A stretch of 64,000 bases of DNA from Nitrospirota bacterium (GTDB lineage: Bacteria; Nitrospirota; Thermodesulfovibrionia; Thermodesulfovibrionales; Dissulfurispiraceae). Location of the stretch: contig CAWBMP010000005.1 of assembly GCA_963790025.1 (NCBI GenBank), positions 64,001-128,000 of the forward strand. Reading direction: 5' to 3'. Below are positions 30,375 to 62,464 of the stretch, piece by piece (the first letter of the stretch is position 1; every line of letters begins with the position of its first letter). The translations under genes and the position numbers were made by a program. The notes beneath the pieces were generated by a model. That model was not told the DNA's origin. It worked only from the letters and a program-made list of their open reading frames with translations, and made no database searches.

Positions 30375-30731
30375 CTAAAAAGTAAATACCTTGGATTCTG
30401 ATGCTAATGCAATCATCTTTTTTGCTGTCTCGAACCGGGCCGACTTGACCAGGTCTTCTTGCCCGATATGTCGGGCGTTTGCGCACGGGGTGCAAGCAAG
30501 GATCGGCACCTCTGCCTTTATAAGATAATCCAGCAGGGGTTTCAGTTCATCGCCGGTAGGGGATTTCATATTGTCGGCCATGCCTATTTTAGCAATCGTT
30601 ACCCCATCCTCAAGCAGGAAGACATTTACCTCATGTCCTTCCTCTTTGGCAACTTTAGCCAGGTGGATGCATCGAGTGGCCCTCACAGGATCATCCATCC
30701 CCCGGCTTAAAACAAAAAGAAATTTCGCCAT
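30375..30731 (-). CDS. DsrE/DsrF-like family protein
   Basis: GHEVNVFLLEDGV and ACTPCANAR (Cys motif). AGGAGG RBS. Confidence 0.88.
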   Translation of the reverse strand: MAKFLFVLSRGMDDPVRATRCIHLAKVAKEEGHEVNVFLLEDGVTIAKIGMADNMKSPTGDELKPLLDYLIKAEVPILACTPCANARHIGQEDLVKSARFETAKKMIALASESKVFTF

Positions 30732-33078: not shown

Positions 33079-33143
33079 GCAGCAAAGGACAAATATACAA
33101 GACCTATAAGTGAATTTTTTTGCTGCTTACTGCCTGCTTCTTA
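33062..33143. repeat. 25-bp inverted repeat built from 7-mer units, overlapping the murJ stop
   Basis: TAAGAAGTAGGCAGTAAGCAGCAAA versus TTTGCTGCTTACTGCCTGCTTCTTA (24/25 complementary). Confidence 0.8.
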
Positions 33144-33161
33144 CTATTTTTAGGGGGTGCT

Positions 33162-33788
33162 ATGATCGTAAAAAGTATTGCTGTCGGGCCGCTTCAGGCC
33201 AATTGTATTATAGTTGCCGACGAGCCGTCCAAAAAAGCCATTATTGTGGACCCCGGAGACGAGCCTGACCGGATAATTGACATTATCAATGACATGGGAC
33301 TAACCGTTGAATGTATAGTATGCACGCACGGCCATTTTGATCATATGGGCGTGGTAAGCGATATTAAAAAAGAGACAGGGGCACGGGTTGCCATACACCG
33401 GGACGAGCTTACGGTATATAAAGGCTCAAAGGATATGGCTGCGATGTGGGGTTTTTCTATGGACTCCGTTCCTGAGCCCGATATCTTATTGTGTGAAGGC
33501 GATACTGTGGTGGTGGGAGATTTAAACCTTGCCGTTCTCCATACGCCGGGACACAGTCCCGGAGGTATATGTCTTTACGGAGAAAATACGGTTATAACGG
33601 GCGACACCCTGTTTCAGGGCTCTGTAGGGAGGACAGACTTTTACGGCGGTGACATGGAAAAGCTCAAACAATCTTTTCGCAGGCTGATGGCGCTGCCGGA
33701 AGATACGAAAGTTTTTCCGGGGCATGGGCCTGCCACGACTATCGGCCATGAGAAAAAATGGAACATGTTTTCAGAAGAATTCCTGTAG
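33162..33788 (+). CDS. MBL-fold metallo-hydrolase (glyoxalase II-like, YcbL type)
   Basis: THGHFDH, HTPGHSPG, GDTLFQGSVGRTD and PGHG. Confidence 0.92.
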   Translation: MIVKSIAVGPLQANCIIVADEPSKKAIIVDPGDEPDRIIDIINDMGLTVECIVCTHGHFDHMGVVSDIKKETGARVAIHRDELTVYKGSKDMAAMWGFSMDSVPEPDILLCEGDTVVVGDLNLAVLHTPGHSPGGICLYGENTVITGDTLFQGSVGRTDFYGGDMEKLKQSFRRLMALPEDTKVFPGHGPATTIGHEKKWNMFSEEFL

Positions 33789-33987: not shown

Positions 33988-35259
33988 ATGAAGCGTTTGT
34001 GGCTGTTGGTTGTTATTACTATATTTGGCACGGCATTGTTTGCGGTTTTTCAGACCGGCACGTTTGCTTCCGAACGCCCAGGGGTCTCCGAAAAGTCGAA
34101 GACTTTTGGGGGTTCAGATGGAAGCGGCATTACCTTGCAGGTGGATAAGACGTCGCTGAATAATGGCGGGACAATTACAATTACAGGATCGGCCCCTCCG
34201 GGTAAGCCCGTCTATATTGAAGTATGGTCCGAAAAGCAGGTGCGCGCATCCCGTTTCGATTCCGATGTGGACAAGGATACGGGGAAAAGACCTTATATTC
34301 TTTACATGACTCATGAAATGCCTGCTTACTACAACATCTTTGTCCCGAAAGACCAGAAGGACAATCTGGACAAGATAAAAAAAGAAGGTAAGCAGTGGAG
34401 TTTCTCAAAGGCCCTGAAGGATGTAGGCGCCGACGAGGTTTACTCTGTACCGGCGGCAATAAAGATAGACAGATATCAGGCCACGCTTATGGGCAGCATT
34501 ATAGGGTCCCGGGGAGATATGCTTCCGGCAATGGACAAAAAAGAGAACCGGAAACTTTCAATGCAGTTGGCAAAAGTCCGTTTCAGATCTCCCGACAAAG
34601 TACTCGGGGCAGGAGTTGAAGTAAACCCGGACGGCACTTATAAGGCAGTTCTGGACATCAGGAAAGGGCTTGCCCCCGGCAAATATAATATCGTGGCGGC
34701 AATTGACAAGAACACAAGAAGCCGGCCTGCTGTTTTTGAAAACAATATTACATTTCCGCATATTTATCTCGGCAACGCCGGTACGAGCCTGAACATTTTC
34801 TGGCCCTTTTTCCTGTCTCTGATCGTCTCTATATTCGGGGTGCTTATGGGCGCTGGAGGCGGTTTCATAATGAACCCTCTTCTGGTTTCCATCTGGCCGC
34901 TTCCGCATGCAGTTGTGGCCGGGACTGTTATGCCCACTGTCCTGTTTTCGCAAGGCAGCGGTATTTATAACTATTCGAGGATAAAATTCATCAGTTGGAA
35001 GCTGGGCATCGCCATAGGGCTCGCAATGGTTGTCGGAGGTTTTATCGGACCAAAGCTGACCGAGTTGATTACTCTCGATCAGTTTAAATTCGTCTTCGGA
35101 TGGATCCTGATTGTGCTTGCGGCACTTATGTATTGGCAGACGACGCCGGGATATATGTCAAGGAACAAGAAGGAACAGGCCATCCTGAAGGAATTCAAGA
35201 AAAAGGCCGAGGAATGCATAAAGGCCAAAGAAGAATGCTCATTGAATGAAGCTAAATAG
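33988..35259 (+). CDS. TauE/SafE (TSUP) family transporter N-half fused to a large exported soluble domain
   Basis: Signal/anchor peptide, ~240-aa hydrophilic domain, then the TSUP motif GVLMGAGGGFIMNP and ~4 TM helices. Confidence 0.85.
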   Translation: MKRLWLLVVITIFGTALFAVFQTGTFASERPGVSEKSKTFGGSDGSGITLQVDKTSLNNGGTITITGSAPPGKPVYIEVWSEKQVRASRFDSDVDKDTGKRPYILYMTHEMPAYYNIFVPKDQKDNLDKIKKEGKQWSFSKALKDVGADEVYSVPAAIKIDRYQATLMGSIIGSRGDMLPAMDKKENRKLSMQLAKVRFRSPDKVLGAGVEVNPDGTYKAVLDIRKGLAPGKYNIVAAIDKNTRSRPAVFENNITFPHIYLGNAGTSLNIFWPFFLSLIVSIFGVLMGAGGGFIMNPLLVSIWPLPHAVVAGTVMPTVLFSQGSGIYNYSRIKFISWKLGIAIGLAMVVGGFIGPKLTELITLDQFKFVFGWILIVLAALMYWQTTPGYMSRNKKEQAILKEFKKKAEECIKAKEECSLNEAK

Positions 35260-35268
35260 GAGGCTGGA

Positions 35269-35658
35269 ATGAAAGTTACTTTTTGGGGACACGAATTTGA
35301 AGTTAATTTAATATTAGGGTGTATAGGAGGTTTCCTCATAGCGATAGTCTCATCGATGTTCGGTTTCGGAGGCGGCCCTTTTATGGTGCCGCTTATGACC
35401 GTAGGCCTCGGACTGCCCATGTACATCGTGGTCGGCAGCTCCCTTCTGGCTATTTTCTTTAATACATTGATGGGGACCATGCGCCATTACCAGTTTGGGA
35501 ACTTCGACCTTGTTTTCTTTCTTGTCATGTTCCCCGCCGCGGTCCTGGGCGGTTTTATCGGTCCGCAGATTGCTAAGAGGGTGAGTCCACTGGTGGTAAA
35601 GAGGATAGCTGTCGCCGGGTTGTTTATTCTGGCATTGAATCTGCTTGGGGTTTACTGA
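35269..35658 (+). CDS. TauE/SafE family transporter C-half
   Basis: SSMFGFGGGPFMVPLM and VVGSSL; ~4 TM helices. AGGAGG RBS overlaps the upstream stop. Confidence 0.85.
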   Translation: MKVTFWGHEFEVNLILGCIGGFLIAIVSSMFGFGGGPFMVPLMTVGLGLPMYIVVGSSLLAIFFNTLMGTMRHYQFGNFDLVFFLVMFPAAVLGGFIGPQIAKRVSPLVVKRIAVAGLFILALNLLGVY

Positions 35659-35659
35659 T

Positions 35660-35721
35660 CGGTAAAGGAGTATATGGGCCTATTCACTCGTTTACTCATT
35701 CACTCTTTTACCCATATACTA
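35660..35721. repeat. 8-nt-periodic repeat / hairpin between tauE and the Mo-subunit gene
   Basis: AGTATATGGG (35669-78) / CCCATATACT (35711-20) perfect IR, with units TTCACTCG TTTACTCA TTCACTCT TTTACCCA. Confidence 0.6.
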
Positions 35722-35737
35722 TAAATTGGAGGTAATG

Positions 35738-37825
35738 ATGGGAGATATATCATCAGTTTACAGCATGTGCGGAATGTGCGCTGTAAGATGTCCGATCAGG
35801 GTGGAGGTAGAGGACGGCGTACTGAAATGGATTGAGGGTAATCAGCACGTACCGGGGATACAAGGAAGCCTTTGTGCAAAAGGGTCTGCCGGGCTGGCAT
35901 TTGAATATGATACGGAGAGGCCCCAATATCCCATGATAAGGACCGGCCCGAGGGGTTCTGGAGAGTGGCGGAAGGCAACATGGGGCGAAGCACTGGATTT
36001 CATAACAGATAGCCTAAAAAAAATAAGGGAAAAATACGGCAGTAAGGCAATTGCTATTGCAGACAGGTCCGGCCCTTTTACGGACCTGTCCAAAAGCTTT
36101 ATTAAGGCACTTGGATCTCCAAACTACTTTGACCATGACGACGCGTGCGCCAAGAATGTAAATCTGGCTTGCCAATCTGTTTTCGGATATGGACGCGGCG
36201 ACATATCTTACGATTTTGCGAATACCGGCCATATTGTGTTATACGGAAGAAATGTATTCGAATCGCTGCAGGTCAAGGAAGTAAATAATATCCTCGATGC
36301 CATGGACGCGGGTACAAAACTGACTTATATAGATATCAGGGCAACGGTGACTGCTTCAAAAGCTGACAAGTTCCTCATGATCAGACCCGGGACGGATTAT
36401 GCACTTAATCTCGCCCTTATTCATGTGATTTTAAAAGAGAGGCTGTATGATGCCGACTTTGTAAATAAATGGGTGGCGGGGCTGACGGAGCTTGAAGGCT
36501 TCGTTGCGCCTTATACTCCGGAATGGGCTGAAAAGGAAACAGGGATACCGGCTTATGAAATTACCGGTCTGGCGCATGATGTGGGCCGGAACAGGCCAAG
36601 AGTAATATTTCACGGCGGCTGGATGCTCTCGCGTTACATCGATTCATTTTACAGCAGCAGGTCGATTTATATCTTAAATGCCTTGATGGGAAATATCGAG
36701 ACGAAAGGCGGACTGATTATTGCAAAAGGACCGAAGGACGCAGGAGCAAGGCCGCTGCGTTCTCTCGGAGAATCGATTCCGGAGGTCAAAGACAAGATAG
36801 TCGACGCAGGGATGCCGGACAAGTCTCTGGGGACAGGACATATCATAAACCTGTACAAGGCGATTAAAACAGGAGTTCCTTATCCTGTAAAGGCGTTTTT
36901 CGCATATCGTTATGACCCTATGGCGTCTCTGCCTGACCCTGAAGCTCAGAAAAAGGTACTGGACAATCTTGACCTGCTTGTTTCCATAGACGTTAATTAT
37001 AGTGAAACTGGATGGTATTCTGATGTAATACTGCCCGAAGCCACATATCTGGAGAGGTCCAATATAATAGCGACGCAGAAGGGTCCGAAGCCGGGCTTTA
37101 TAATGAGGAGGCAAGCTATTGCGCCAAGATTTGACAGCAAGCCTGCATGGGAGATATTCACGCTTGTTGGCGGGAAAATGGGAGCCGGCGAGTATTTCCC
37201 GTACAAGAGCATAGAGGACATCTGGAATTACCAGCTGTCGGGCACAGGGATTACGATTGACGACTTCGACAAGAAGGGAATGGTGGGCCTTGCAGAAAAA
37301 CCTTTGCTTATGGACAGGGACGATCTCAAATTCAAGACCCCCTCCGGGAAGATCGAGTTTGTTTCCGGGGTGCTGTCAAAGAACACTTTCGAGTCATTTG
37401 CTTCTTATGTGAGTCCCCAAAAACCCGAAGACGGTTGTTTCAGGCTGGCATTCGGGAGGACGGCGGTCCATGCCCACGCTCAGTCGCAGAACAATATCTA
37501 TCTCAACGAGATTATTTCCGAAAATGTGCTCTGGATAAACAGGGAGGCGGCGGACAAGCTCGGTATAAACGATGGCGAAATGGTGGAAGTGAGCACTGAC
37601 GGATACAGCGGCAGGATCAGGGCAAAAGTTACGCCATACATACATCTCGAAGCGGTTTTTATGCTGCATGGCTTCGGCAATGAGATCCCGCTGAAAACCA
37701 GGTCTTTTAAAAAGGGACTGAGGGACACGAAGTTCGCCGGTGGGCTGCTGGAAACAGTGGATCCTGTCGGGGGCGGCGTTGCCTATCTTGAATGCATGGT
37801 GAGGGTCAGGAGGATTAAAGAATGA
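35738..37825 (+). CDS. Molybdopterin oxidoreductase catalytic subunit, Psr/Phs (thiosulfate/polysulfide reductase) type, no Tat signal
   Basis: CGMCAVRC...LCAKG FeS motif begins about 8 residues from the start. Cys Mo-ligand region GSPNYFDHDDAC; IRPGTD, SDVILPEATYLER and FKTPSGKIE. Confidence 0.88.
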   Translation: MGDISSVYSMCGMCAVRCPIRVEVEDGVLKWIEGNQHVPGIQGSLCAKGSAGLAFEYDTERPQYPMIRTGPRGSGEWRKATWGEALDFITDSLKKIREKYGSKAIAIADRSGPFTDLSKSFIKALGSPNYFDHDDACAKNVNLACQSVFGYGRGDISYDFANTGHIVLYGRNVFESLQVKEVNNILDAMDAGTKLTYIDIRATVTASKADKFLMIRPGTDYALNLALIHVILKERLYDADFVNKWVAGLTELEGFVAPYTPEWAEKETGIPAYEITGLAHDVGRNRPRVIFHGGWMLSRYIDSFYSSRSIYILNALMGNIETKGGLIIAKGPKDAGARPLRSLGESIPEVKDKIVDAGMPDKSLGTGHIINLYKAIKTGVPYPVKAFFAYRYDPMASLPDPEAQKKVLDNLDLLVSIDVNYSETGWYSDVILPEATYLERSNIIATQKGPKPGFIMRRQAIAPRFDSKPAWEIFTLVGGKMGAGEYFPYKSIEDIWNYQLSGTGITIDDFDKKGMVGLAEKPLLMDRDDLKFKTPSGKIEFVSGVLSKNTFESFASYVSPQKPEDGCFRLAFGRTAVHAHAQSQNNIYLNEIISENVLWINREAADKLGINDGEMVEVSTDGYSGRIRAKVTPYIHLEAVFMLHGFGNEIPLKTRSFKKGLRDTKFAGGLLETVDPVGGGVAYLECMVRVRRIKE

Positions 37826-38331
37826 GCGAGTATTACATATATCAGGACCAGAAGAGATGCATAGGATGCTATGCATGCGAGGTGCACTGCAAGACCAAAA
37901 ACAATCTGCCGGTCGGCCCCAGGTTCTGCAGGATCATCCCGGTAGGGCCGAAGATGACAGCGGGTATCCCGAAAATGCAGTTTATCTTCATGCCCTGTTT
38001 CCATTGCGAAAAGCCGTGGTGTGTTTCGGCATGCCCGACAGGGGCGATGCAGAGAAGGGCAAAGGACGGCATTGTATTCGTTGAGCAGTCGTTGTGTGTG
38101 GGCTGCAAGTCATGCATAACCGCCTGCCCGTGGGGTGTGCCCCAGTGGGACCATGAAACCGGCAAAGTAATAAAGTGCGATTACTGCAGGGACCGGGTTG
38201 ACAAAGGCCTGAAACCGGCATGCGTCATCAAATGCACTGCACACGCGCTTCGCTGGGTCACTCCGGAAGAAGCATCCGGTTTGAAAAGAGAAAGATTTGC
38301 AAAAGAGGTCGCCGAAAATTTCAATTACTAA
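37822..38331 (+). CDS. 4x[4Fe-4S] electron transfer subunit (PhsB/DmsB-like)
   Basis: CIGCYACEVHC, CFHCEKPWCVSACP, CVGCKSCITACP and KCDYC...PACVIKC. Confidence 0.92.
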   Translation: MSEYYIYQDQKRCIGCYACEVHCKTKNNLPVGPRFCRIIPVGPKMTAGIPKMQFIFMPCFHCEKPWCVSACPTGAMQRRAKDGIVFVEQSLCVGCKSCITACPWGVPQWDHETGKVIKCDYCRDRVDKGLKPACVIKCTAHALRWVTPEEASGLKRERFAKEVAENFNY

Positions 38332-38344
38332 TCTGCATAAGACC

Positions 38345-39145
38345 ATGACTGTAAGATTTGAAATCGACGGTAAAAAAATTGTTGCGGAGCAGGGAGTGAC
38401 TGTTCTGGATGCGGCCGGCAGAGAAGGCATCCGGATCCCCACGCTTTGTTACCATAAGGCACTCGGGCCGAATGGTGTGTGCAGATTATGCATAGTCGAA
38501 GCGCAGGGACCTGGGTTAAGCGGTATGGTCACTACCTCATGCAATCTCAAAGCCACAGAAGGCATGGTTGTCGAAACATCTTCGGAGCATATAATTTCGA
38601 TGAGAAAGACTTTGCTCGACCTGCTGCTTTCCGGCACGGTTTTATCCGCACAACTTAAGGAATTGGCGGAGGCTGCCGGTGTTCGCGGGGGCCGGTTTAA
38701 AATCGAAAAGAGCGATAAGTGCATATTATGCGGACTCTGTGTGAGAGTGTGCCGTAACGTTATAGGGGCAGCCGCATTGCTTTTCGAAACATCGGGCAAG
38801 AACCGCAACAGCGTTGCGGAAGAGATCAGTTTGCTTCGGGAACGCTGCATAGGTTGCGGAGCATGCGCCGCTGTTTGCCCGGTATCCGCCATAAGGATGG
38901 AGGATACCGGTTTAAAGCGAAATATTATTGTTTATGGCGATATCGCAAATGCTTTGGATTTGGTTTCATGCAATATGTGCGGAACGCCATATGCGCCGCA
39001 GAAATTCATAGATTCGGTCGTGTCCCGGATCGATGTGGAATTGAGAAAAGGAATAAAAAAACTTTGTCCCGAATGTGCCCGTCGCTTTTATGTGGGGGCG
39101 TTAACAGGGGAGTTTCAGCCTGATTCTTTTCAAGTGCGGGAGTAA
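38345..39145 (+). CDS. [2Fe-2S]/[4Fe-4S] protein resembling the N-terminus of NuoG/FdhA/SfrA
   Basis: IPTLCYH..GVCRLCIVE..TSC, CILCGLCVRVC, CIGCGACAAVCP and C-terminal CNMCG...CPEC. Confidence 0.85.
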   Translation: MTVRFEIDGKKIVAEQGVTVLDAAGREGIRIPTLCYHKALGPNGVCRLCIVEAQGPGLSGMVTTSCNLKATEGMVVETSSEHIISMRKTLLDLLLSGTVLSAQLKELAEAAGVRGGRFKIEKSDKCILCGLCVRVCRNVIGAAALLFETSGKNRNSVAEEISLLRERCIGCGACAAVCPVSAIRMEDTGLKRNIIVYGDIANALDLVSCNMCGTPYAPQKFIDSVVSRIDVELRKGIKKLCPECARRFYVGALTGEFQPDSFQVRE

Positions 39146-39148
39146 AAC

Positions 39149-41098
39149 ATGGTTGAAAAAGCCTTTTCTTTTTGGAATAACGAACTGAACGAAACTTTTG
39201 CGCCTCTTAAACACGGAGAAAAACAGCTTGCGGCAGTTATAGGCTGGGACGGAATCCAGGTATTCGATCCCGGCATCGACATCATCAGTCTTTGCTATGA
39301 ATATGCCTGTGCTGTGCGGGAAAGTTCCTGCGGGCAATGTATACCTTGCAGAACGGGTTCACGCGTACTGGCGGATATTTTCAGGAGAATAAGAGACGGC
39401 GAAGGACGGCCTGTTGACCTTGACGACATAAAAAGCATCTCGACGGCAATGGCTGAAGCCTCGATGTGCGAGATAGGCAAAAGCTCCCTGCGCGTGTTCC
39501 TATTCCTCATGGAGAAGGTCAAGGATATATTCATGGCTGCAATCAAGGGCACCACGGAGAAGAGGAATGGATATATATATAAATCCATAGTAACAGCCCC
39601 CTGCATACAGGCATGTCCCATACATCTTGACATCCCGAAATATATTGAGGAAATAAAATTCGGAAGGTTCCGAGAATCATTGGAAGTTATAAGGCAACGA
39701 CTCCCTCTGCCGGGTGTCGTGGGCAGGGTCTGCGTGCGGCCATGTGAGTCCAACTGCAGGCGGGGACTCGTCGATGAGCCGATACAAATAAAACACCTGA
39801 AGCGGTTTGCTGCGGACAATGCGGCTGTTGAGGAAGCTGTGCAGTGTGGGCGGCGCGGGGTGCGGGTGGCGATAGTGGGCGCCGGCCCCTCCGGGCTCAC
39901 ATGTGCACATTTTCTTGCTCGACTGGGGTATGACGTCACCATCTTCGAGATGCTGCCTGAACCCGGCGGTATGGCTGCGGTCGGCATTCCCGATTACCGG
40001 CTGCCCCGAGCTGTGCTGCGCAGTGAAGTAAAAGCCATAGAAGATCAGGGCGTTAAAATATTTTATGGGCATGCGCTCGGTGTACATTTCACTTTGGACG
40101 ACCTTGAAGAACAGGGATTCAAGGCCGTCTTTATAGGCATGGGTTGCCATTGCCATAAAAAAATGGACATCGAGGGAGAGGACGCCGGATATTACGGTTA
40201 TGTGCCGGGCGTATATTTCCTGAGGAATATTAATCTCGGACTTATGGATGAAGTGCCACGAGGAAAAAAAATTGCAGTTGTCGGAGGAGGCAATGTTGCG
40301 ATAGATTGTGCGCGCATCGCCTTCAGATCAGGTTTTGAGGAATCTCATGTTGTTTACCGCCGTTCGCGCAAAGAGATGCCTGCCGACCCTGTTGAAATTG
40401 CCGATGCCGGGGCCGAAGGGGTGCAATACCATTTTCTTACCGCCCCCAAAAAGATTATTGGTGAAAGCGGGAAAGTGACAGGACTGGAGTGCTTCAGGAT
40501 GGAACTGGGTGAGCCCGATGCCTCGGGCAGAAGAAGACCGGTTGGAGTCAAGGGTTCCGAATTTGTAATAAACGCCGATGTTATTGTTGCGGCCATCGGT
40601 CAGGAGGGAGATTTCTCATGCGTATGCAATCTTCCCGGCGTCAAAACATCGGAAAGGGGAGCGTTGATTGTCGATGAAAATTTAATGACTTCCAGAAAGG
40701 GTGTATTTGCCGGGGGCGACTGCGTTACCGGACCCGATGTGCTCATACGCGCCTGCGCTCACGGCAGGCTGGTAGGCCTTAAAATCGACCGGTTTATAAC
40801 GACGGGAAAGATCGGGGTCCTTGAAGAGGAAATGGATGAAAAGCTTTTGAACAGTTTCAGCGGCCTTGATGCGAATGAGAAGGTGAAAGTGCCCGGCGGA
40901 ACTGTGCGCATTCCTGTAAGACATGAGCCGCCGACGGCGAGAAAGGGGGATTTCCGGGAGGTGGATAAAGGGTTCACTCCTGAAGAAGCGGTTTCAGAGG
41001 CGAGCCGGTGTCTAAGGTGCTACAGAGTGCTCATGTATGTATATTCCAAACCCAATAGAACGTATATTGCAGAAGATAATAGTTCCGGAACTTTATAA
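39149..41098 (+). CDS. FAD/NADP(H)-dependent oxidoreductase, SfrB/GltD-like, with an N-terminal NuoF-type [4Fe-4S] domain
   Basis: IGWDG, SCGQCIPCRTG..MCEIG, APCIQACP..GRVCVRPCESNC, GAGPSG, GGGNVAID, YRRSRKEM and RCLRC. Confidence 0.88.
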   Translation: MVEKAFSFWNNELNETFAPLKHGEKQLAAVIGWDGIQVFDPGIDIISLCYEYACAVRESSCGQCIPCRTGSRVLADIFRRIRDGEGRPVDLDDIKSISTAMAEASMCEIGKSSLRVFLFLMEKVKDIFMAAIKGTTEKRNGYIYKSIVTAPCIQACPIHLDIPKYIEEIKFGRFRESLEVIRQRLPLPGVVGRVCVRPCESNCRRGLVDEPIQIKHLKRFAADNAAVEEAVQCGRRGVRVAIVGAGPSGLTCAHFLARLGYDVTIFEMLPEPGGMAAVGIPDYRLPRAVLRSEVKAIEDQGVKIFYGHALGVHFTLDDLEEQGFKAVFIGMGCHCHKKMDIEGEDAGYYGYVPGVYFLRNINLGLMDEVPRGKKIAVVGGGNVAIDCARIAFRSGFEESHVVYRRSRKEMPADPVEIADAGAEGVQYHFLTAPKKIIGESGKVTGLECFRMELGEPDASGRRRPVGVKGSEFVINADVIVAAIGQEGDFSCVCNLPGVKTSERGALIVDENLMTSRKGVFAGGDCVTGPDVLIRACAHGRLVGLKIDRFITTGKIGVLEEEMDEKLLNSFSGLDANEKVKVPGGTVRIPVRHEPPTARKGDFREVDKGFTPEEAVSEASRCLRCYRVLMYVYSKPNRTYIAEDNSSGTL

Positions 41099-41121
41099 TA
41101 TGTTAACGAAGTCGGAATGGC

Positions 41122-41625
41122 ATGATGGAAGGAACGCAGGAAATGGACCCACAGCCCGATAGCGAGCTCGTCCGGTATTCGACTGCCAAAGCAGAAGGCG
41201 TCAGGACTGTTCTCTTTGTATGCAGTGGTAATGCATTTCGTTCACAGGTCGCCGAGGGACTGGTAAATCATTATTTTAAGGGGCAATGGGCTGCCTTTTC
41301 CGCCGGGTTGCTGCCGGCTGGGATTCCCCGTGACCTTGTTAAAGTGATGGCCGAGCAGGGTATAGACATTAAAAGCCACCGATCAAAACATCTTGACCTG
41401 TTTACCGGGTGCTGTTTCGACAAGGTGTTCATCCTCTGTGCCGATGTAAGCCGGATCTGCCCGGAACTTCCCGGATATGGAGAAACAGAGGTCCTGTGTT
41501 TCCCCGACCCGCTTTCCGCTGCTGGATATGCCGAAGGATGCTGCATTGGAATAAAGGCGACTTTTCGAAGCCTTCGCGATTCAATGAAAACGACCCTTCT
41601 ATCTGTCATGAAGCGCCTCACATGA
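41122..41625 (+). CDS. ArsC / low-molecular-weight protein tyrosine phosphatase family protein
   Basis: P-loop CSGNAFRSQVAEG (CX5R), redox Cys pair ILCADVSRICP and catalytic DP. Confidence 0.85.
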   Translation: MMEGTQEMDPQPDSELVRYSTAKAEGVRTVLFVCSGNAFRSQVAEGLVNHYFKGQWAAFSAGLLPAGIPRDLVKVMAEQGIDIKSHRSKHLDLFTGCCFDKVFILCADVSRICPELPGYGETEVLCFPDPLSAAGYAEGCCIGIKATFRSLRDSMKTTLLSVMKRLT

Positions 41626-44285
41626 AAAAATTACGCGGAATTCTTGCCCTGCAAAGGGGACGGGCTTTCCGGAAAGAGGCGGGAGATATCGGAGCAAAGT
41701 ACCGGTTTTTCAGGCATCTTCTGAGGCACAACAAAGCTGCGCTTACAGCTATTGCCGACATGGAACAGCTTTATTACAGCGGTAAACCTTTCAGCCTTAC
41801 CACAATTAGAATAAAGTATGAGGAACTGCTTGAGGCTGTTAACGGAATCCTCTACGCTTATAGTGTATTGTCGGAGCACGACATAGACGTCCTATCTGAA
41901 AAGCTCGCCGCCCTGGACCGGGGTCTTTTTCACTATTTCAATCCGCACTGCGATTCAGCGGACAGGAGGTTTATTCTGCCGTTTGAATCGATTACTCCCG
42001 CCATGAAAAAGATCGTGGGCGGGAAGGCCGCCAATCTTGCCGCAATACATAATATGATGGGACTGTCCGTGCCCCGGGCCTTTTCCGTTACGGCCCATGC
42101 TTTTGAATACTTTGTCGAGCACAACGGGTTGCGGAGGTACATGAATGAGGAATTTGTCCGAATTTCTTCCGGTTCAACCGCGGATCTCGAAAAGACGTGC
42201 GCCCGGCTTAGAAGTGTTTTCCTCGAGGCGGATGTGCCTCCGCTGTTGGAAAAGGAAATACTTAGCGCATACGCGGTGCTTGAGAAGGCCACTCATCCCG
42301 GGGTGCGCATCGCTATGAGAAGCAGTGCCGTCGGTGAGGATGCCGAGGCCAGTTTTGCCGGCCAGTATGAAACTGTGCTTAATGTAAAAGAGGGCGATAT
42401 TCTGAACGCTTACAAGCGTGTTATTGCGAGCAAGTACTCGGTGCAGGCTATCACGTATCGACAGCAGCACGGACTTTTCGACCGCGAGACGCCCATGGGT
42501 GTTATCGGAATTGTCATGATCGATTCGAAAGCGAGCGGGGTTCTCTATTCAGTGGACCCTCTTTCGCCGTGTTCCTGCACTATGAGGATCAATTCACTCT
42601 GGGGCGTGGGAGAGCAACTTGTCGACGGGAGCGCCTCGCCTGACATTTTTGTTATCGGCAGGGAAAAGAGGAAAATACTAGAGCGGCATATTGCAGCAAA
42701 AACCTCACGGCTGGTGAGCCTTGAAAGCGGAGGGGTCCGGATGGAGGAGGTAGGCGCATATGAGGCCGCTGTTCCATCCCTTGACGATGCTCAGGTGATT
42801 ACCCTGGCCGATTGCGGATGGCGTCTTGAGGAATTTTTCTCGTCTCCGCAGGACGTTGAATGGGCCCTCGATGCGAACGGCTCCCTCTACATACTTCAGT
42901 CGCGGCCACTACATCTGCCCAATAAGGCCGCGGAAGATAAAGGACATGATTCTATCGACTGTCCGGTGCTTTTTTCGAGAGGCATTACAGCGTCACCAGG
43001 CGTTGCGACAGGGAAGGTTTTTATTGTGGAAAAGGACGCGGACCTGAATGCGGTCCCCGACGACGCAATCCTCGTATCCAGGACAGCGTCCCCCCACCTG
43101 GCAAAGGTCATCGGAAGGATCAGGGGAATTATCACCGACATCGGAAGCGTCACAAGCCACCTGTCATCGGTTGCTCGCGAATTCGGCATACCGGCCCTTG
43201 TCGATACCGGGACTGCCACTGGTTCCCTTCGCAATGGCGAGATCATAACAATGTCGGCAACGGCCGCTAAAGTGTACGAAGGTGTCGTTGAGTCTCTTGC
43301 AAGGCAAATGCGGCCTGCGCGGAATCCAATGTTTGATAGTCCGGTCCACCGGTTGATGAGGGACATCCTCGACAAGATCGCCCCGCTGGGCCTGACCGAT
43401 CCGGAAGCCCCGCAATTTGCTCCTGAGGGGTGCGCTACTTATCACGATATAATACGCTATACGCATGAAATGGCGGTGCGCTCGATGTTCGGGATCTCGG
43501 ATGAGGCGCGGCCTTCAAAATCATCCGTGGAACTTATCACTAATGTCCCCCTGTCTATCAGTCTTATCGACATGGGCGGCGGATTGAAGGAGGGACTTGC
43601 TGTTTCCGGGCTTGTCACCCCTGATTCTATTCAATCAGTTCCAATGCGCGCTGCATGGAAAGGATTCACGCACCCGGGGGTCAACTGGGAAGGCACTATG
43701 AATTTTGGAGGCAGCAAACTTGCCGGCCTGCTTGCAGTCACTGCTATCTCGGAATTAGGAGAACAGGGCGGCGGAGAGAGCTATGCGCTTATTTCACGTG
43801 ATTACATGAACATGAATGTCAGGTTCGCCTATCACTTTGCTGCAATCGACACATTGTGCGGCGAGGACAGTCAGCAGAATTATATCTCGCTCCAGTTTTC
43901 GGGCGGAGCCGGAAACTACTACGGACGCTCACTCAGAGCGCGGTTGATCAGCGAGATTCTGGAACGGTTGGAGTTCAGGGTAACTTTGAAGGGTGACTTT
44001 GTAGAGGCCTCGTTTTCACGGTACGACAGAAAAGCTACCGAAGATCGGCTCGACCTGACGGGGAGGCTGCTGGCCTCTGTCCGCCTGCTGGACATGACCC
44101 TGTCGAACCAGGAGGAGGTGTCGGTGCATACAGAGGAGTTTTTAAAAGGCAACTATGATTTTCTGGCAAAAAGACGTGACGATGAACTGGGCAATTTCTA
44201 TGTTCGGGGCGGGTACTGGAAACGTCTCACCTGGATGGACGGCCCTGCTGTATGCAGGACGGTGCCCGCTGGGGCCGGGGGATAG
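41622..44285 (+). CDS. PEP-synthase/dikinase-like protein (ATP-grasp + phospho-His swivel + non-canonical C-terminal domain); probably frameshifted near the 3' end
   Basis: GGKAANL, RSSAVGEDAEASFAGQYET, QDVEWA..ILQSRPL and VTSHLSSVAREFGIP. ATGA overlap with arsC. Confidence 0.85.
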   Translation: MKKLRGILALQRGRAFRKEAGDIGAKYRFFRHLLRHNKAALTAIADMEQLYYSGKPFSLTTIRIKYEELLEAVNGILYAYSVLSEHDIDVLSEKLAALDRGLFHYFNPHCDSADRRFILPFESITPAMKKIVGGKAANLAAIHNMMGLSVPRAFSVTAHAFEYFVEHNGLRRYMNEEFVRISSGSTADLEKTCARLRSVFLEADVPPLLEKEILSAYAVLEKATHPGVRIAMRSSAVGEDAEASFAGQYETVLNVKEGDILNAYKRVIASKYSVQAITYRQQHGLFDRETPMGVIGIVMIDSKASGVLYSVDPLSPCSCTMRINSLWGVGEQLVDGSASPDIFVIGREKRKILERHIAAKTSRLVSLESGGVRMEEVGAYEAAVPSLDDAQVITLADCGWRLEEFFSSPQDVEWALDANGSLYILQSRPLHLPNKAAEDKGHDSIDCPVLFSRGITASPGVATGKVFIVEKDADLNAVPDDAILVSRTASPHLAKVIGRIRGIITDIGSVTSHLSSVAREFGIPALVDTGTATGSLRNGEIITMSATAAKVYEGVVESLARQMRPARNPMFDSPVHRLMRDILDKIAPLGLTDPEAPQFAPEGCATYHDIIRYTHEMAVRSMFGISDEARPSKSSVELITNVPLSISLIDMGGGLKEGLAVSGLVTPDSIQSVPMRAAWKGFTHPGVNWEGTMNFGGSKLAGLLAVTAISELGEQGGGESYALISRDYMNMNVRFAYHFAAIDTLCGEDSQQNYISLQFSGGAGNYYGRSLRARLISEILERLEFRVTLKGDFVEASFSRYDRKATEDRLDLTGRLLASVRLLDMTLSNQEEVSVHTEEFLKGNYDFLAKRRDDELGNFYVRGGYWKRLTWMDGPAVCRTVPAGAGG

Positions 44286-44797
44286 CTTCAGGGCTTTCCG
44301 GACTGGTGGGCAAAGTGGTGGGCAATGCATACCGTGATTTTCTCGACACGATCGAAGCGTATTATTATTTCCCTTTCGCTGTGGCAAAGGGAATTGAACT
44401 TTCCCATGGCACAGTTCATGTGAAAATTAAGCCGCTGGCCGGCAATATCGACAGGGCAGGCGGCATCGCTGTTGCTATAAAAAATATCGATAATTACTTT
44501 GTGCTCAGGACAAACGCACTTGAGGGGAATGTGGTCCTTTTCGAATACAGGAACGGGCGGCGGTTTGCACTCGTCAATGTGAGGAAAAAGGTCGAGACCG
44601 GTGTCTGGCACAGTCTAAGTGTCGAAATTGAAGGAGACACTCTTAAAGGATATCTGAACGGGGAGCAGATGCTTGAGTACAGGGCGGACGGGCCTCTGCA
44701 TGGGTACATAGGGCTATGGACGAAATCAGATTCAGTCATTTATTTTGATGAATTTACATTGGAAACCTCCGGGAGAAAGCAGATTATCGAATTTTGA
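44252..44797 (+). CDS. DUF1080/ConA-like beta-sandwich domain; likely the frameshifted C-terminus of the upstream dikinase-like gene
   Basis: RAGGIAV..NYFVLRTNALE, WHSLSVEI and GYIGLWTKSDS. The -1 frame is open from 44186. Confidence 0.65.
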   Translation: MQDGARWGRGIASGLSGLVGKVVGNAYRDFLDTIEAYYYFPFAVAKGIELSHGTVHVKIKPLAGNIDRAGGIAVAIKNIDNYFVLRTNALEGNVVLFEYRNGRRFALVNVRKKVETGVWHSLSVEIEGDTLKGYLNGEQMLEYRADGPLHGYIGLWTKSDSVIYFDEFTLETSGRKQIIEF

Positions 44798-44928
44798 TGG
44801 ACCATAAATAGCGTTGTTTTTGGGGTGTATCAGGCTGTGTATGCTATAATAACTCTGCGTGTTTTGCGGAGCCATCCGTTTTTTTTTGCACAACTCTCGG
44901 CGTTATTTTGTTTGGATAAGGGGAATCG

Positions 44929-45729
44929 TTGTTAGAATTATTTAGGCAGATCAGGTGGCAGGATTTTCTTGATATCGCTATCGTCTCGGTAGTACTGTAC
45001 CAGGCCCTTCTCATTGTCAGGGGCACCAAGGCGGCGCAAATGCTCCTCGGGCTTGGTGTCCTGCTTATCGCTTACTTTTTCTCAAATTTTTTCCAACTCT
45101 ACACTATGGACTGGATTATCCAGAGTTTCTGGTCCCAGGTGGTTATTGTGCTGATCGTGCTTTTCCAGCCTGAAATCAGAAGGGCACTGGCGCAGATGGG
45201 GGAGTCTTCATTTTTCCAGAATTTGACCGTTGCAGAGGAGTTGAAATCCCTGGAAGAGATAGTCAAGGCGTCTATCGCATTGGCCCACAGGAAAATCGGG
45301 GCATTGATCGTTATTGAAAGAGAGGTCAGCCTCAAGGACTATGTTGAAATTGCCACGCAGTTGGATGCAAAGGTTTCCAAGGAATTACTGCTGAGCATAT
45401 TTCATCCTACCTCGCCGATTCACGACGGTGCGATAGTCATCAGGGGGAACAGGGTTGTTGCCGCAGGATGTTTCCTGCCGATAACGCTCGGATCGGATGT
45501 CAGCAAATCGCTGGGCACCCGGCACCGGGCCGGTATCGGTATTACCGAGGATACAGATGCAGTGGCTATCATTGTTTCGGAGGAGACTGCAATGATTTCG
45601 GTGGCCCTGCACGGCAGGTTCGAGACCCATGTCGACATGGGCACGTTGCGCGATATCCTCACCGACCTGTTTGCCGAATCAAAAAAAGGGAAGGCCGCTG
45701 CAAAAAAAATTATTTCGAAGGACTCGTAA
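44929..45729 (+). CDS. cdaA: Diadenylate cyclase CdaA (DacA)
   Basis: 3 TM helices, FQPEIRRAL, GALIVIE, IHDGA, GTRHRAG and VSEET. Confidence 0.95.
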   Translation: MLELFRQIRWQDFLDIAIVSVVLYQALLIVRGTKAAQMLLGLGVLLIAYFFSNFFQLYTMDWIIQSFWSQVVIVLIVLFQPEIRRALAQMGESSFFQNLTVAEELKSLEEIVKASIALAHRKIGALIVIEREVSLKDYVEIATQLDAKVSKELLLSIFHPTSPIHDGAIVIRGNRVVAAGCFLPITLGSDVSKSLGTRHRAGIGITEDTDAVAIIVSEETAMISVALHGRFETHVDMGTLRDILTDLFAESKKGKAAAKKIISKDS

Positions 45730-45735
45730 GATATA

Positions 45736-46374
45736 ATGAAAAAGATACTTTTCAACAATCCCGGCACCAAGGTACTTGCGGTTGTCCTTGCGATATCCAT
45801 GTGGATATTTGTTACCTATCGGGGGCAGTCGGAAATGGCCATTGATGTTCCTATCGCGTTCAAGAATGTGCCGAAAGGACTGGAACTGCTGCGCGTGAGC
45901 GCGAAGATGGCGGCATTGAATTTGCGCGGACACGAGAGTCTGCTGAAAAGTCTGAGACCTGTAGACATCGGCGTTGTTATTGACCTGTCCAAAGCGAAGA
46001 AAGGGGAGGCCATATATTATTTGGACAAGAACTCCATAGTCGTACCGGGGACCGTCGATATCCTGAGAATAGAGCCGACGTCGGTCAAAGTAGTGCTTGA
46101 TGAATCACTGATGAAGACGCTTCCGGTGAAGGCAACTATTATAGGTACTCCTGAAAGAGGATTTAAAGTTGTTTCTGTTGATGTCAAGCCTTCTTCAGTG
46201 ACGGTTGAAGGTTCCAGGACAGAACTTGCCAGACTTGCGGTCCTGAGGACGGAGACGATCGATGTGACTGGACTCGATTCGAATGTCACAGAGAGCGTCC
46301 GGATTAATACCAACGGCAGGAATATAAGGGTAAAGACACCTGAAGTAATAGTAAGCATTGCCATAAGGAGGTAA
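45736..46374 (+). CDS. cdaR: CdaR/YbbR family protein
   Basis: N-terminal TM and two YbbR-like beta repeats; lies between cdaA and glmM. Confidence 0.88.
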   Translation: MKKILFNNPGTKVLAVVLAISMWIFVTYRGQSEMAIDVPIAFKNVPKGLELLRVSAKMAALNLRGHESLLKSLRPVDIGVVIDLSKAKKGEAIYYLDKNSIVVPGTVDILRIEPTSVKVVLDESLMKTLPVKATIIGTPERGFKVVSVDVKPSSVTVEGSRTELARLAVLRTETIDVTGLDSNVTESVRINTNGRNIRVKTPEVIVSIAIRR

Positions 46375-46378
46375 TATA

Positions 46379-47728
46379 GTGAAGTTGTTTGGTACCGATG
46401 GGATCAGGGGAAAAGTGAACAAATATCCCATGACTCCTGAAAATGTGTTGCGTATCGGTATGGCAATCGCCTCGGTCTTGAGTACTGACCACGGGCGGCG
46501 TATGGTACTGATAGGCAAGGACACGCGGCTTTCCGGCTACATGATCGAAAGCGCTCTTACCTCCGGCATTTGCTCAATGGGAATGGATGTTACTCTTGTC
46601 GGACCCATCCCCACCCCCGGCGGCGCCTACCTGACGCGTGCGCTGCGGCTTGATGCCGGCATTATTATTTCGGCCTCGCATAATCCATTTCAGGACAACG
46701 GTATAAAAATATTTTCTTCCGAAGGGTTTAAGCTTTCCGATGAGATCGAGCACAAAATAGAGCTGCTTATCGAGGATAATACGTTCCCTGCGCGCCGGTC
46801 ATCCGGGGACGGGATCGGCAAGGCATTTCGTTTGGCAGATGCTGAAGGGCGCTATATTGAGTATATAAAATCCACCATCCCGAGGGGGGCCGACCTGGAA
46901 GGACTCAAAGTGGTGGTCGATACGGCCAACGGTGCGGCGTATAAAGTTACTCCTATGTTGTTGCGCGAACTCGGCGCGCAGGTTGTGGCTATCAACGATA
47001 AGCCTGACGGTGTCAATATCAATGCTAACTGCGGCTCGCTGCACCTGGACCGTCTTGCCGCCGCGGTAAAGAAGGAAAAAGCCCACGTGGGCATTGCCCA
47101 CGATGGCGATGCCGACAGGACGCTCCTGGTGGATGAACGAGGTAATCAAGTCGACGGGGACATGATTCTGGGGATATGGGCTTCAGAGCTTAAAAAAGAG
47201 GGTCGGCTCCAGGGAAACGGCGTAGTTGCGACCGTTATGAGCAACCTCGGTCTTGAACAGTATCTTGCCCGACAAGGGGTCAAGTTCCTGAGGACCATGG
47301 TCGGCGACCGGTATGTCGTTGAAGAGATGATCAAAAGAGGCCACAATTTGGGCGGCGAGCAATCCGGCCATATCATATCATTTGATTACAACACAACTGG
47401 AGACGGACCCATAACCGCTCTGCAGGTGCTATATATGATGAGAAAAAAGAATGTTCTCCTTTCCGAATTGACGGCCGGGATTGAACTTTATCCTCAGGTG
47501 CTTCTGAATGTTCCTAGTGGAAAGAGAAGTGACATTAAAGGAATCCCGGAGATAACGAGGGCCATTGACGATGCAACTAAAAAACTCGGCAGCAGAGGCA
47601 GGATACTTGTCAGACCTTCCGGTACAGAGCCTAAAATACGTGTCATGGTAGAGGCAGAGGATTCAGGCATGGCAACCGGCCTGGCTGAGCAGGTGGCCGG
47701 GGTCATCCAGGAGAAGCTGGGCGCTTAG
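46379..47728 (+). CDS. glmM: Phosphoglucosamine mutase
   Basis: FGTDGIRG, ISASHNPFQDNGIK, DGDADR, GGEQSGH and RPSGTEP. Confidence 0.97.
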   Translation: MKLFGTDGIRGKVNKYPMTPENVLRIGMAIASVLSTDHGRRMVLIGKDTRLSGYMIESALTSGICSMGMDVTLVGPIPTPGGAYLTRALRLDAGIIISASHNPFQDNGIKIFSSEGFKLSDEIEHKIELLIEDNTFPARRSSGDGIGKAFRLADAEGRYIEYIKSTIPRGADLEGLKVVVDTANGAAYKVTPMLLRELGAQVVAINDKPDGVNINANCGSLHLDRLAAAVKKEKAHVGIAHDGDADRTLLVDERGNQVDGDMILGIWASELKKEGRLQGNGVVATVMSNLGLEQYLARQGVKFLRTMVGDRYVVEEMIKRGHNLGGEQSGHIISFDYNTTGDGPITALQVLYMMRKKNVLLSELTAGIELYPQVLLNVPSGKRSDIKGIPEITRAIDDATKKLGSRGRILVRPSGTEPKIRVMVEAEDSGMATGLAEQVAGVIQEKLGA

Positions 47729-61745: not shown

Positions 61746-61845
61746 TCTTTAACGAAAGGGCAAACCATTCGAAAGAATGGGACGCAAAGCCTACGACCTA
61801 AAGACTGAAAGCAGCAGTCGACGGTAGCGGGGTTGCCGATGAAAG
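61746..61845 (+). ncRNA. Cyclic di-GMP-I (GEMM) riboswitch
   Basis: AGGGCAAACCATTC-GAAA-GAATGGGACGCAAAGCC..CCTAAA...GGTAGCGGGGTTGCCGA. This gives P2 with a GNRA loop, the GCAAAG junction and the tetraloop receptor, closely matching the Vc2 aptamer core. Confidence 0.93.
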
Positions 61846-62357: not shown

Positions 62358-62464
62358 GAGAGTATTATTATAACTATCTCTTTTTAAACCAGCTCTTATT
62401 GAAATATTTCACATATTCCCCTAATATAGTATGAATGCCTTGTGTAATGATGAAAGGACGTCTA

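Follow-up and report, generated by a model that had tools for sequence, protein, structure and literature searches.

How a molybdenum (Mo) enzyme of the polysulfide/thiosulfate reductase (Psr/Phs) type is supplied with electrons when it has neither an export leader nor a membrane anchor is the question raised by a gene cluster at positions 33988-44797 of a 64,000-nucleotide (nt) stretch of DNA from a Nitrospirota bacterium (assembly GCA_963790025.1, contig CAWBMP010000005.1, positions 64,001 to 128,000 of the forward strand), which we refer to as the window. In several recent papers, anchorless, cytoplasmic PhsAB/PsrAB-like enzymes figure as central to the disproportionation and reduction of thiosulfate and sulfur without their part being explained, and the conserved set of neighbours described here offers such enzymes NADPH as a candidate electron donor, along with a scheme for the wiring and a transporter. 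Judged from sequences and structural models, we consider it probable that the cluster encodes a soluble, cytoplasmic, NADPH-dependent inorganic-sulfur reductase, with thiosulfate as its most likely substrate and polysulfide as the main alternative. An earlier note on this DNA had proposed that cytoplasmic NADP(H) may be wired, through an SfrAB-like module without a Mo domain of its own, to a PhsAB-like catalyst served by a TauE transporter; taken as a whole, its observations on the sequence were partly confirmed and its interpretation was partly supported.

The catalytic pair and its gene cluster

Calling of open reading frames (ORFs), together with Pfam and NCBIfam searches, found the co-oriented run at 33988-44797 of the + strand again at the same coordinates, in the same order and with the domains that the earlier note had read. 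That note had counted nine packed ORFs; the final two are one frameshifted gene, so the cluster consists of eight genes (aa, amino acids):

33988..35259, + strand: N-terminal half of a split TauE/SafE-family anion transporter (PF01925 profile positions 2-113 on residues 274-387)
35269..35658, + strand: C-terminal half of the split TauE, 129 aa (PF01925 profile positions 127-237; own AGGAGG ribosome-binding site in the 9-nt gap)
35738..37825, + strand: leaderless Psr/Phs-type molybdopterin (bis-pyranopterin guanine dinucleotide, bis-PGD) catalytic subunit, 695 aa (Pfam, NCBIfam, PsrA alignment, two trees)
37822..38331, + strand: PsrB/DmsB-type ferredoxin (iron-sulfur, FeS) subunit, 169 aa, with four predicted [4Fe-4S] clusters (Fer4_11; DmsB profile 148 bits)
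38345..39145, + strand: WorA/BfuA-like (NuoG N-terminus-like) adaptor, 266 aa (Fer2_4 and Fer4)
39149..41098, + strand: SfrB-type iron-sulfur flavoprotein, 649 aa (NADH_4Fe-4S 52-129, Fer4_20 149-227, Pyr_redox_2 239-539)
41122..41625, + strand: low-molecular-weight (LMW) phosphatase with a CX5R-S motif (Pfam LMWPc)
41622..44797, + strand: one dikinase-like gene split by a 1-nt frameshift (PPDK_N ATP-grasp, swivel-His of the PEP-utilizers, unassigned middle domain and ConA/DUF1080-like tail)

The two TauE ORFs lie 9 nt apart and the second of them 79 nt from the Mo gene, which overlaps the FeS-subunit gene by 4 nt. A gap of 13 nt leads to the adaptor, whose start is probably ATG 38345; 3 nt separate the adaptor from the flavoprotein and 23 nt the flavoprotein from the phosphatase, and the dikinase start at 41622 overlaps the phosphatase gene in an ATGA.

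The catalytic subunit contains the Pfam domains Molybdop_Fe4S4, Molybdopterin and Molydop_binding and belongs to the Psr/Phs branch of the DMSO-reductase (Mo/W-bisPGD) superfamily. Its N-terminus reads MGDISSVYSMCGMCAVRCP, and the CxxCxxxC motif of the cluster FS0 begins at residue 11. Upstream of the opening residues, MGDISSVYSMCGMC, the frame is open for just 4 codons 5′ of ATG 35738, which leaves no room for a twin-arginine translocation (Tat) leader, as the earlier note had observed. Alignments with the PhsA profile and with Thermus thermophilus PsrA start at position 37 and residue 36, respectively, past the leaders of those proteins, and all 119 listed homologs (own entry excluded) measure 681-713 aa. 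The best NCBIfam model was PhsA (NF012032 equivalog, 508 bits), and the best solved relative was T. thermophilus PsrA (2vpw, E 1.7e-113), followed by acetylene hydratase (1e-53) and ArrA (1.2e-37). Cys137 is invariant in alignment A2, the one used for the locus scan below, and is aligned to the position of PsrA that is presumably the Mo ligand. Two other identities were tried and ruled out: formate dehydrogenase, prompted by the names that one source gives to homologs of the flavoprotein (the runner-up model, Fdh-alpha, reached 252 bits vs 508 for PhsA), and arsenate respiration (ArrA, 133 bits vs 384 for PsrA).

Among the 50%-identity representatives, which were searched exhaustively, the nearest clusters (36-51% identity) open directly at the Cys motif, and Tat-bearing ones lie farther off. 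In a FastTree analysis of 161 rows the Mo subunit fell into a 100-supported clade of 83 rows, 0 of which carried a Tat label (assigned by regular expression), and a quick IQ-TREE run on 50 rows placed it in a 100-supported clade of 31 rows with no Tat-bearing member. The leaderless clade was sister (support 98) to a clade holding the three PhsA-equivalog representatives, to which the Mo subunit is 32-35% identical; these were the 3 of 64 scanned representatives to pass the PhsA cut-off, with scores of 998-1058, and they bear Tat leaders. Both trees come from short searches without bootstrap, the IQ-TREE root being three distant representatives chosen as outgroup. The best reading of the sequences is that the Mo subunit is cytoplasmic and represents a leaderless sister lineage to true PhsA.

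The window also agrees with the earlier note in offering no PsrC/PhsC/NrfD anchor. ORFs of 80 aa or more were called across the 64 kb by a greedy, non-overlapping procedure; all 58 that it retained were scanned with Pfam (E≤1e-3 in one scan, E≤1e-6 in a second), and none of the 58 matched NrfD/PsrC or Nuo families. NrfD likewise had no match in 60 ORFs scanned out of 98 that flank the 14 related loci, described below, with neither type of partner. PhsABC of Salmonella and PsrABC of T. thermophilus (2VPW) and Wolinella share with the window enzyme the fold family, domain order and FS0 motif of the A subunit and a four-cluster B subunit, but they have a Tat leader and an NrfD-type anchor, whereas the window cluster has neither and so would not, unlike them, couple to quinol at the periplasmic face.

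The earlier note had called the system undescribed, which proved too strong, since cytoplasmic PhsAB/PsrAB-like enzymes without Tat leader or anchor are in print. Anchorless AB-only Mo enzymes, likened here to the window's by their descriptions, are reported from Dissulfuribacter thermophilus, Desulfolithobacter dissulfuricans, Sulfurimonas/Sulfurovum and Thermodesulfovibrio sp. N1; they are without a Tat leader where this is stated, and their electron donor is unknown or guessed (PMC13490349, PMC9751629, PMC10045233, PMC5165239). Anchorless or cytoplasmic Phs/Psr AB proteins also occur in Desulfobulbaceae (PMC13047784), and Desulfurella has a Tat-bearing AB-only enzyme (PMC6378623). The AB genes of Thermodesulfovibrio sp. 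N1 stand beside Nuo genes without NuoEFG (PMC5165239), as do, by locus-tag order, those of Desulfolithobacter (GF1_30490/30500/30520). The four papers on AB-only enzymes cited first mention no flavoprotein/adaptor module, whereas the window has one, and our literature search, outside which most subscription journals lay, found no paper in which a GltD/SfrB-type flavoprotein and a NuoG-N-like adaptor accompany a leaderless PhsAB-like enzyme. Within the reach of that search, only the NADPH module is undescribed.

A candidate path from NADPH to the catalyst

The three genes downstream of the Mo gene have the domains that the earlier note had assigned to them. The FeS subunit displays 16 invariant Cys in four groups for cluster binding, as PsrB/DmsB-type four-cluster proteins do, and its profile matches include PsrB (2vpw_B, 1.8e-32) and WorS (9mqx_E, 2.1e-21). 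It starts MSEYY, and on reading the sequence no signal peptide or transmembrane segment was seen in it.

Cys motifs in the adaptor would bind one [2Fe-2S] and two [4Fe-4S] clusters, and a CxxC...CxxC site follows at its C-terminus; the invariant residues are Cys 35/46/49/66, 126/129/132/136, 168/171/174/178 and 209/212/241/244. Positions 2-240 of the adaptor's profile align with residues 5-238 of WorA (9mqx_A, E 2.3e-57), a full-length match that places it with WorA/BfuA; because it ends at 266 aa without a Mo domain, it is not a fusion of the SfrA kind.

The flavoprotein combines the C-terminal [4Fe-4S] domain of NuoF with a GltD/NfnB-like part that holds two [4Fe-4S] clusters and an FAD/NAD(P)H domain, which is the build of SfrB. 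Among solved structures it comes closest to NfnB and to the GltD-like parts of Stn/Nfn-Bfu enzymes, and one source labels its homologs 'formate dehydrogenase (NADP+) beta subunit'. A YRR motif is present in the window protein and in 38/40 partner flavoproteins of the related loci considered below. In NfnB this motif grips the 2′-phosphate of NADPH. It is also characteristic of the DsrL-2 group, of which one member has been tested: DsrL-2 of D. amilsii showed activity with NADP(H) only (PMC7596348). The window scans returned no NuoE-like and no FMN (flavin mononucleotide)-binding NuoF-like subunit, so a Bfu core is not encoded there; such subunits occur in 6/80 related loci.

Each part of this module has a counterpart in a known system. 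The flavoprotein shares the build of the SfrB and FdhB subunits of SfrAB (Geobacter sulfurreducens) and NADP-dependent FdhAB, and by domain comparison the N-terminal Fer2/Fer4 part of SfrA corresponds to the adaptor (relations of SfrA and SfrB, PMC7483475); in the window, unlike in SfrAB, that part is a free-standing protein of 266 aa without Mo domain, and the catalyst is a separate PsrAB-type pair. The tungsten aldehyde oxidoreductase WorABCSL (9MQX) shares a WorA-like adaptor, including the C-terminal four-Cys site, and a WorS-like four-cluster subunit, and with its cousins it follows the same idea of one pterin catalyst served by alternative modules (flavoprotein, Bfu or membrane dehydrogenase; PMC12318220). 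It differs in that the window catalyst is of the Mo/W-bisPGD DMSO-reductase family rather than a WOR-family tungstoenzyme and in that the window's flavin module is of the GltD type and bears an NADP motif. Thermotoga Npsr, Thermococcus NsoABC and Pyrococcus SuDH/NfnI reduce polysulfide or thiosulfate in the cytoplasm with NAD(P)H, as proposed here, and NsoC and SudA share a GltD-like module with the window flavoprotein (PMC9431562, PMC7483475); catalysis by Npsr, NsoABC and SuDH/NfnI is flavin/thiol chemistry without the Mo-pterin subunit that the window cluster has.

When the FeS subunit and the adaptor were modelled as a complex, the score was 0.76, whereas the best of 3 controls scored 0.00. 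Of solved complexes, 116/157 reach the mark that this pair passed, as do 2/215 mismatched pairs, rates that are rough here as our own alignments were supplied. The runs shared at least 91% of contacts, with a predicted local distance difference test (pLDDT) of at least 81 in the partners, and the interface comprises residues 64-75 and 90-106 of the FeS subunit and 135-140, 171-177 and 217-256 of the adaptor, its [4Fe-4S] regions included. By analogy with NarH, we take these FeS-subunit residues to coordinate the distal cluster, which faces the anchor in respiratory relatives. On this model, the FeS subunit may dock the adaptor at its distal cluster. In WorABCSL, a C-terminal zinc finger and a helix of WorA recruit the four-cluster WorS, with an S4-A4 distance of 10.7 Å (PMC12318220).

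According to the proposed mechanism, electrons would pass within the flavoprotein from NADPH to FAD, then to its two [4Fe-4S] clusters and its NuoF-type [4Fe-4S] cluster, and from there to the [2Fe-2S] and two [4Fe-4S] clusters of the adaptor. From the adaptor they would move into the PsrB-type subunit at its distal cluster, which is where PsrC docks in membrane-bound relatives, run along all four of its clusters and then reach, through FS0, the Mo-bisPGD of the catalytic subunit and a cytoplasmic sulfur substrate. The split TauE would bring the anionic substrate in or carry sulfite out. Three points of this scheme are our inference: the assembly of the four redox proteins into one complex, which way the electrons flow and what the substrate is.

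Partners in related loci and rival readings

Synteny was scored in the best 80 of 591 confirmed matches, on contigs from one genome per species. The locus scan used the smaller alignment A2, the 14-sequence alignment A1 being too diverse, and loci were annotated by tblastn with the window proteins and by clustering of all ORFs. Most of the 80 are from Desulfobacterota at ~50% identity, with a few from Nitrospirota, Caldimicrobium, Thermodesulfatator and Peptococcaceae, and 67/80 have a PsrB-like gene no more than 3 kb from the Mo gene. Partners were counted in the 55 loci whose downstream flank reaches 5 kb or more. A GltD-type flavoprotein is present in 34 of these, every one with a Fer2/Fer4 match; a Nuo context, defined as three or more Nuo-type genes, is found in 7, and the two occur together in 0/55. 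Together with the YRR motif and the docking score, these 34 loci give computational backing to the earlier note's core idea of an SfrAB-like module wired to a cytoplasmic PhsAB-like catalyst.

Within the Nitrospirota, homolog lists for the Mo subunit, flavoprotein and dikinase share longest-contig values (Mo/flavoprotein 11, Mo/dikinase 10, flavoprotein/dikinase 13, against a mean of 0.3-0.5 when shifted). Six such values, including 12.5, 18 and 22 kb, are common to all three lists, which indicates that the window arrangement recurs in related members of the phylum.

The partner flavoproteins of the related loci come in four builds: the SfrB type of the window; NuoF-GltD fusions of ~1011-1052 aa (L048, L065); a degenerate NuoF joined to GltD and ferredoxin (~1135 aa); and, in most Desulfobacterales, GltD with a C-terminal two-cluster ferredoxin domain (~720 aa). 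Desulfobacter curvatus (locus L007) is a cultured relative with the flavoprotein type of cluster. At L048:3663-6698 and L065:5945-9103, a full NuoF (FMN domain, SLBB, [4Fe-4S]) is fused to the GltD-like NADPH module beside the Mo/FeS pair, with NuoE-like genes near; from their sequences, these loci could encode an electron-bifurcating version.

At L006, L016, L018, L019, L027, L040 and L057, Nuo-like genes stand directly downstream of closely related leaderless PsrAB-like pairs. Pfam identified the Nuo genes as homologs of NuoB, C, D, I, A, H, J, K and L/M/N, NuoEFG being absent, and the combination suggests a membrane-bound variant that faces the cytoplasm. Flavoprotein and Nuo contexts interleave in the trees, and on 50 rows the flavoprotein context needs at least 6 changes. 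This alternation of partners on close catalytic subunits suggests a tuning of the energetics of a reaction at very low potential. The AB dimer thus looks like a plug-in unit, which relatives place beside Nuo-like membrane genes or NuoF-GltD fusions. It is possible, and we put it forward tentatively, that leaderless Phs-like AB dimers form a widespread family of cytoplasmic plug-in catalysts (Nitrospirota, Desulfobacterota, some Bacillota) with three energy modules: an NADPH flavoprotein, a possibly bifurcating NuoF-GltD fusion and a proton-translocating Nuo-like arm without NuoEFG; the dikinase/phosphatase pair might switch the system. If so, cytoplasmic reduction of thiosulfate or sulfur would be tied energetically either to the pool of pyridine nucleotides or to the proton motive force.

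Several observations weigh against an NADPH-dependent thiosulfate reductase. Neither type of partner was found at 14/55 loci, although one of these (L057) carries NuoC and NuoD by Pfam; the synteny that the earlier note had proposed to search for holds for the flavoprotein/adaptor at 34 loci and in the Nitrospirota but not at these 14 or the 7 with Nuo. The nearest relatives with readable flanks, L015 (75% identity) and L006 (57%), have Nuo-type genes and no flavoprotein downstream (8 nuo-type gene families at L006 and 2 at L015, where the flank ends at 3.3 kb); at L001 (78%), the sequence stops 643 nt past the Mo gene. Longest-contig matching is indirect, and of the 11 values shared by Mo subunit and flavoprotein, two (3233 and 3648 nt) leave no room for both genes and are probably due to chance. 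Most Desulfobacterota flavoproteins lack the NuoF-type domain, so synteny backs a GltD-type NADPH flavoprotein rather than the exact subunit. The contact between FeS subunit and adaptor was modelled, but because both chains have homologs in the solved WorABCSL complex, the pass may merely echo 9MQX and counts as likeness, not as proof of binding. The Mo subunit falls below the PhsA equivalog cut-off (508 vs 694 bits), and sequence cannot separate thiosulfate, polysulfide, sulfur, selenite or other substrates. Finally, the standard potential of the couple thiosulfate/(HS- + HSO3-) is about -402 mV, compared with -320 mV for NADPH. Thiosulfate cleavage by NADPH would thus be uphill unless sulfite and sulfide are kept low, as a Dsr-containing cell could do, and polysulfide would be easier; an uphill reaction may also explain the alternative Nuo-type and NuoF-GltD partners.

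The substrate is accordingly where the strongest rival lies. The same complex might instead be an NADPH:polysulfide/persulfide (sulfur) reductase, or reduce some other oxyanion of a chalcogen or pnictogen (tetrathionate, selenite or arsenate, for example), to which we assign a real but minor share of the probability. Reduction of polysulfide by NADPH is thermodynamically easy, the closest solved structure (2vpw) is a polysulfide reductase, and the failed PhsA cut-off fits this view as well. Moreover, Psr and Phs are described as inseparable by sequence (PMC13047784), and the cytoplasmic PsrA2B2 of Sulfurimonas/Sulfurovum is discussed as a sulfur reductase (PMC10045233). Set against this, PhsA equivalogs occupy the sister clade, ArrA is far more distant (133 vs 384 bits), TauE-family carriers, going by the family name alone, move small sulfur oxyanions, and the proteomic signal of a relative came with thiosulfate: D. 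thermophilus had more of a leaderless, cytoplasmic PhsAB-like pair and of a TauE protein when it was disproportionating thiosulfate (PMC13490349). Thiosulfate is favoured because of the sister clade, the linked transporter and this proteome. PhsAB mutants of D. alaskensis G20 are mildly impaired on thiosulfate (PMC4215793), and the physiology of both organisms may support the window enzyme by analogy.

It is unlikely that the genes are mere neighbours, with a PsrAB-like dimer fed by ferredoxin or another carrier and the adaptor and flavoprotein acting as a separate NADPH:ferredoxin oxidoreductase or as a remnant of an SfrAB/FDH-type enzyme. That would account for the 14/55 loci where the AB dimer has no partner module, for the formate dehydrogenase beta-subunit names of the flavoprotein homologs and for the four loci where an SfrA/FdhA-like second Mo protein adjoins the PsrA-like gene. 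It accords poorly with the tight packing of the genes (4-nt overlap, 13- and 3-nt gaps), with the mutual exclusion of flavoprotein and Nuo partners (34, 7, 0 both) and with the modelled interface at the distal cluster of the FeS subunit, and among the scanned window ORFs there is no second Mo subunit for such a module to serve. The four loci just mentioned (L037, L039, L047, L053) have no PsrB-like gene, and the N-terminus of their second Mo protein is Fer2_4 + Fer4. An oxidative or disproportionating direction, for example from sulfide/sulfite or sulfane sulfur to reduction of NADP+, we regard as highly improbable: the thiosulfate couple does lie under NADPH at standard state and the host's Thermodesulfovibrionia/Dissulfurispiraceae-like group of Nitrospirota includes a sulfur disproportionator (PMC12998232), but published models for relatives invoke reductive cleavage of thiosulfate (PMC13490349).

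Transporter, phosphatase-dikinase pair and surroundings

The earlier note's reading of TauE as split was borne out, in that the two ORFs match the whole PF01925 profile jointly but not singly. The first begins (33988-34770) with a signal-peptide-like start followed by an extracytoplasmic domain of ~230-260 aa without family match. The same two-ORF form (ORF clusters 3+14) was found in 6 related loci, which indicates a natural two-gene form rather than damage, and the presence of a TauE gene in 38/80 related loci upholds the proposal of a linked transporter. In Desulfobacterota, TauE is in one piece and paired instead with a separate 193-aa protein; there (L017, L038 and others) a sigma-54 response regulator, a PAS histidine kinase and a PhnD-type periplasmic binding protein often lie upstream of TauE. 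The same upstream stretches contain two small proteins of no known family (168 and 193 aa), and the window has no such regulators nearby. Upstream of the window's TauE, no convincing sigma-54 promoter was seen by eye, no formal scan having been made.

The protein that the earlier note had called ArsC-like is more likely, from its sequence, the phosphatase partner of the dikinase. It has the CX5R motif and a later Cys pair, and it scores 78 bits against the model for thioredoxin-coupled ArsC (TIGR02691), under the cut-off of 174.3. In 6/119 listed homologs of the dikinase (own entry excluded) LMWPc is fused N-terminally to the dikinase, and in 1 PP2C takes that place; the alignment of one fused homolog (P0314) spans both window genes, phosphatase and dikinase. 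The interchange of LMWPc and PP2C argues for a kinase/phosphatase pair and not for an arsenic or sulfur reductase.

The dikinase-like protein with a DUF1080-like tail has both of the domains ascribed to it, but its tail ORF is not a separate gene. The two ORFs span 41622-44285 and 44252-44797, the latter with weak Glyco_hydro_59_C and 3keto-disac_hyd (DUF1080) matches, and intact homologs (82-84% identity, 1058-1059 aa) cover both pieces with a frame switch at ~44231-44255. The frameshift reads as one base absent after codon ACC 44229-44231, where there is no homopolymer run, and may be either genuine or introduced during assembly. Pfam found no C-terminal TIM-barrel domain for phosphoenolpyruvate (PEP)/pyruvate binding, the PEP synthase model gave 339 bits vs a cut-off of 598, and an Atlas look-up of the middle domain returned scores of 0.79-0.82, under the 0.9 level for more than a lead. 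In 6/80 loci a relative without the tail is encoded within 12 kb of the Mo gene; at L010, L038 and L073 it adjoins response-regulator and/or histidine-kinase genes. The phosphatase and dikinase genes are linked to the cluster, the dikinase gene also in related Nitrospirota, and a regulatory role is our guess.

The cluster is flanked by unrelated housekeeping genes (Pfam), with MurJ and a metallo-β-lactamase (MBL)-fold hydrolase upstream and cdaA-ybbR-glmM downstream:

44866-44889, + strand: terminator-like hairpin and T-run past the last gene (weak evidence; regional count at shuffled level)
44929-47728, + strand: cdaA - ybbR(cdaR) - glmM operon (c-di-AMP synthase set), past the terminator-like site

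Neither the terminator scan of the region (14 sites vs a shuffled mean of 13.7) nor the promoter scan (19 vs 14.1) rose above shuffles. The MBL-fold gene (33120-33788) was dropped as a member of the system because a close homolog (65% identity) occurs at one related locus only, ~8 kb from the Mo gene, besides one distant 27% match in L055. About 3 kb upstream of the cluster, a gene for a small DsrE/DsrF-family protein (30375-30731, - strand) adjoins a CstA transporter gene. Farther downstream, a c-di-GMP-I riboswitch is found at window positions 61749-61840 (+ strand, 80.8 bits), and the next + strand ORF, 62435-63826, encodes three rhodanese domains.

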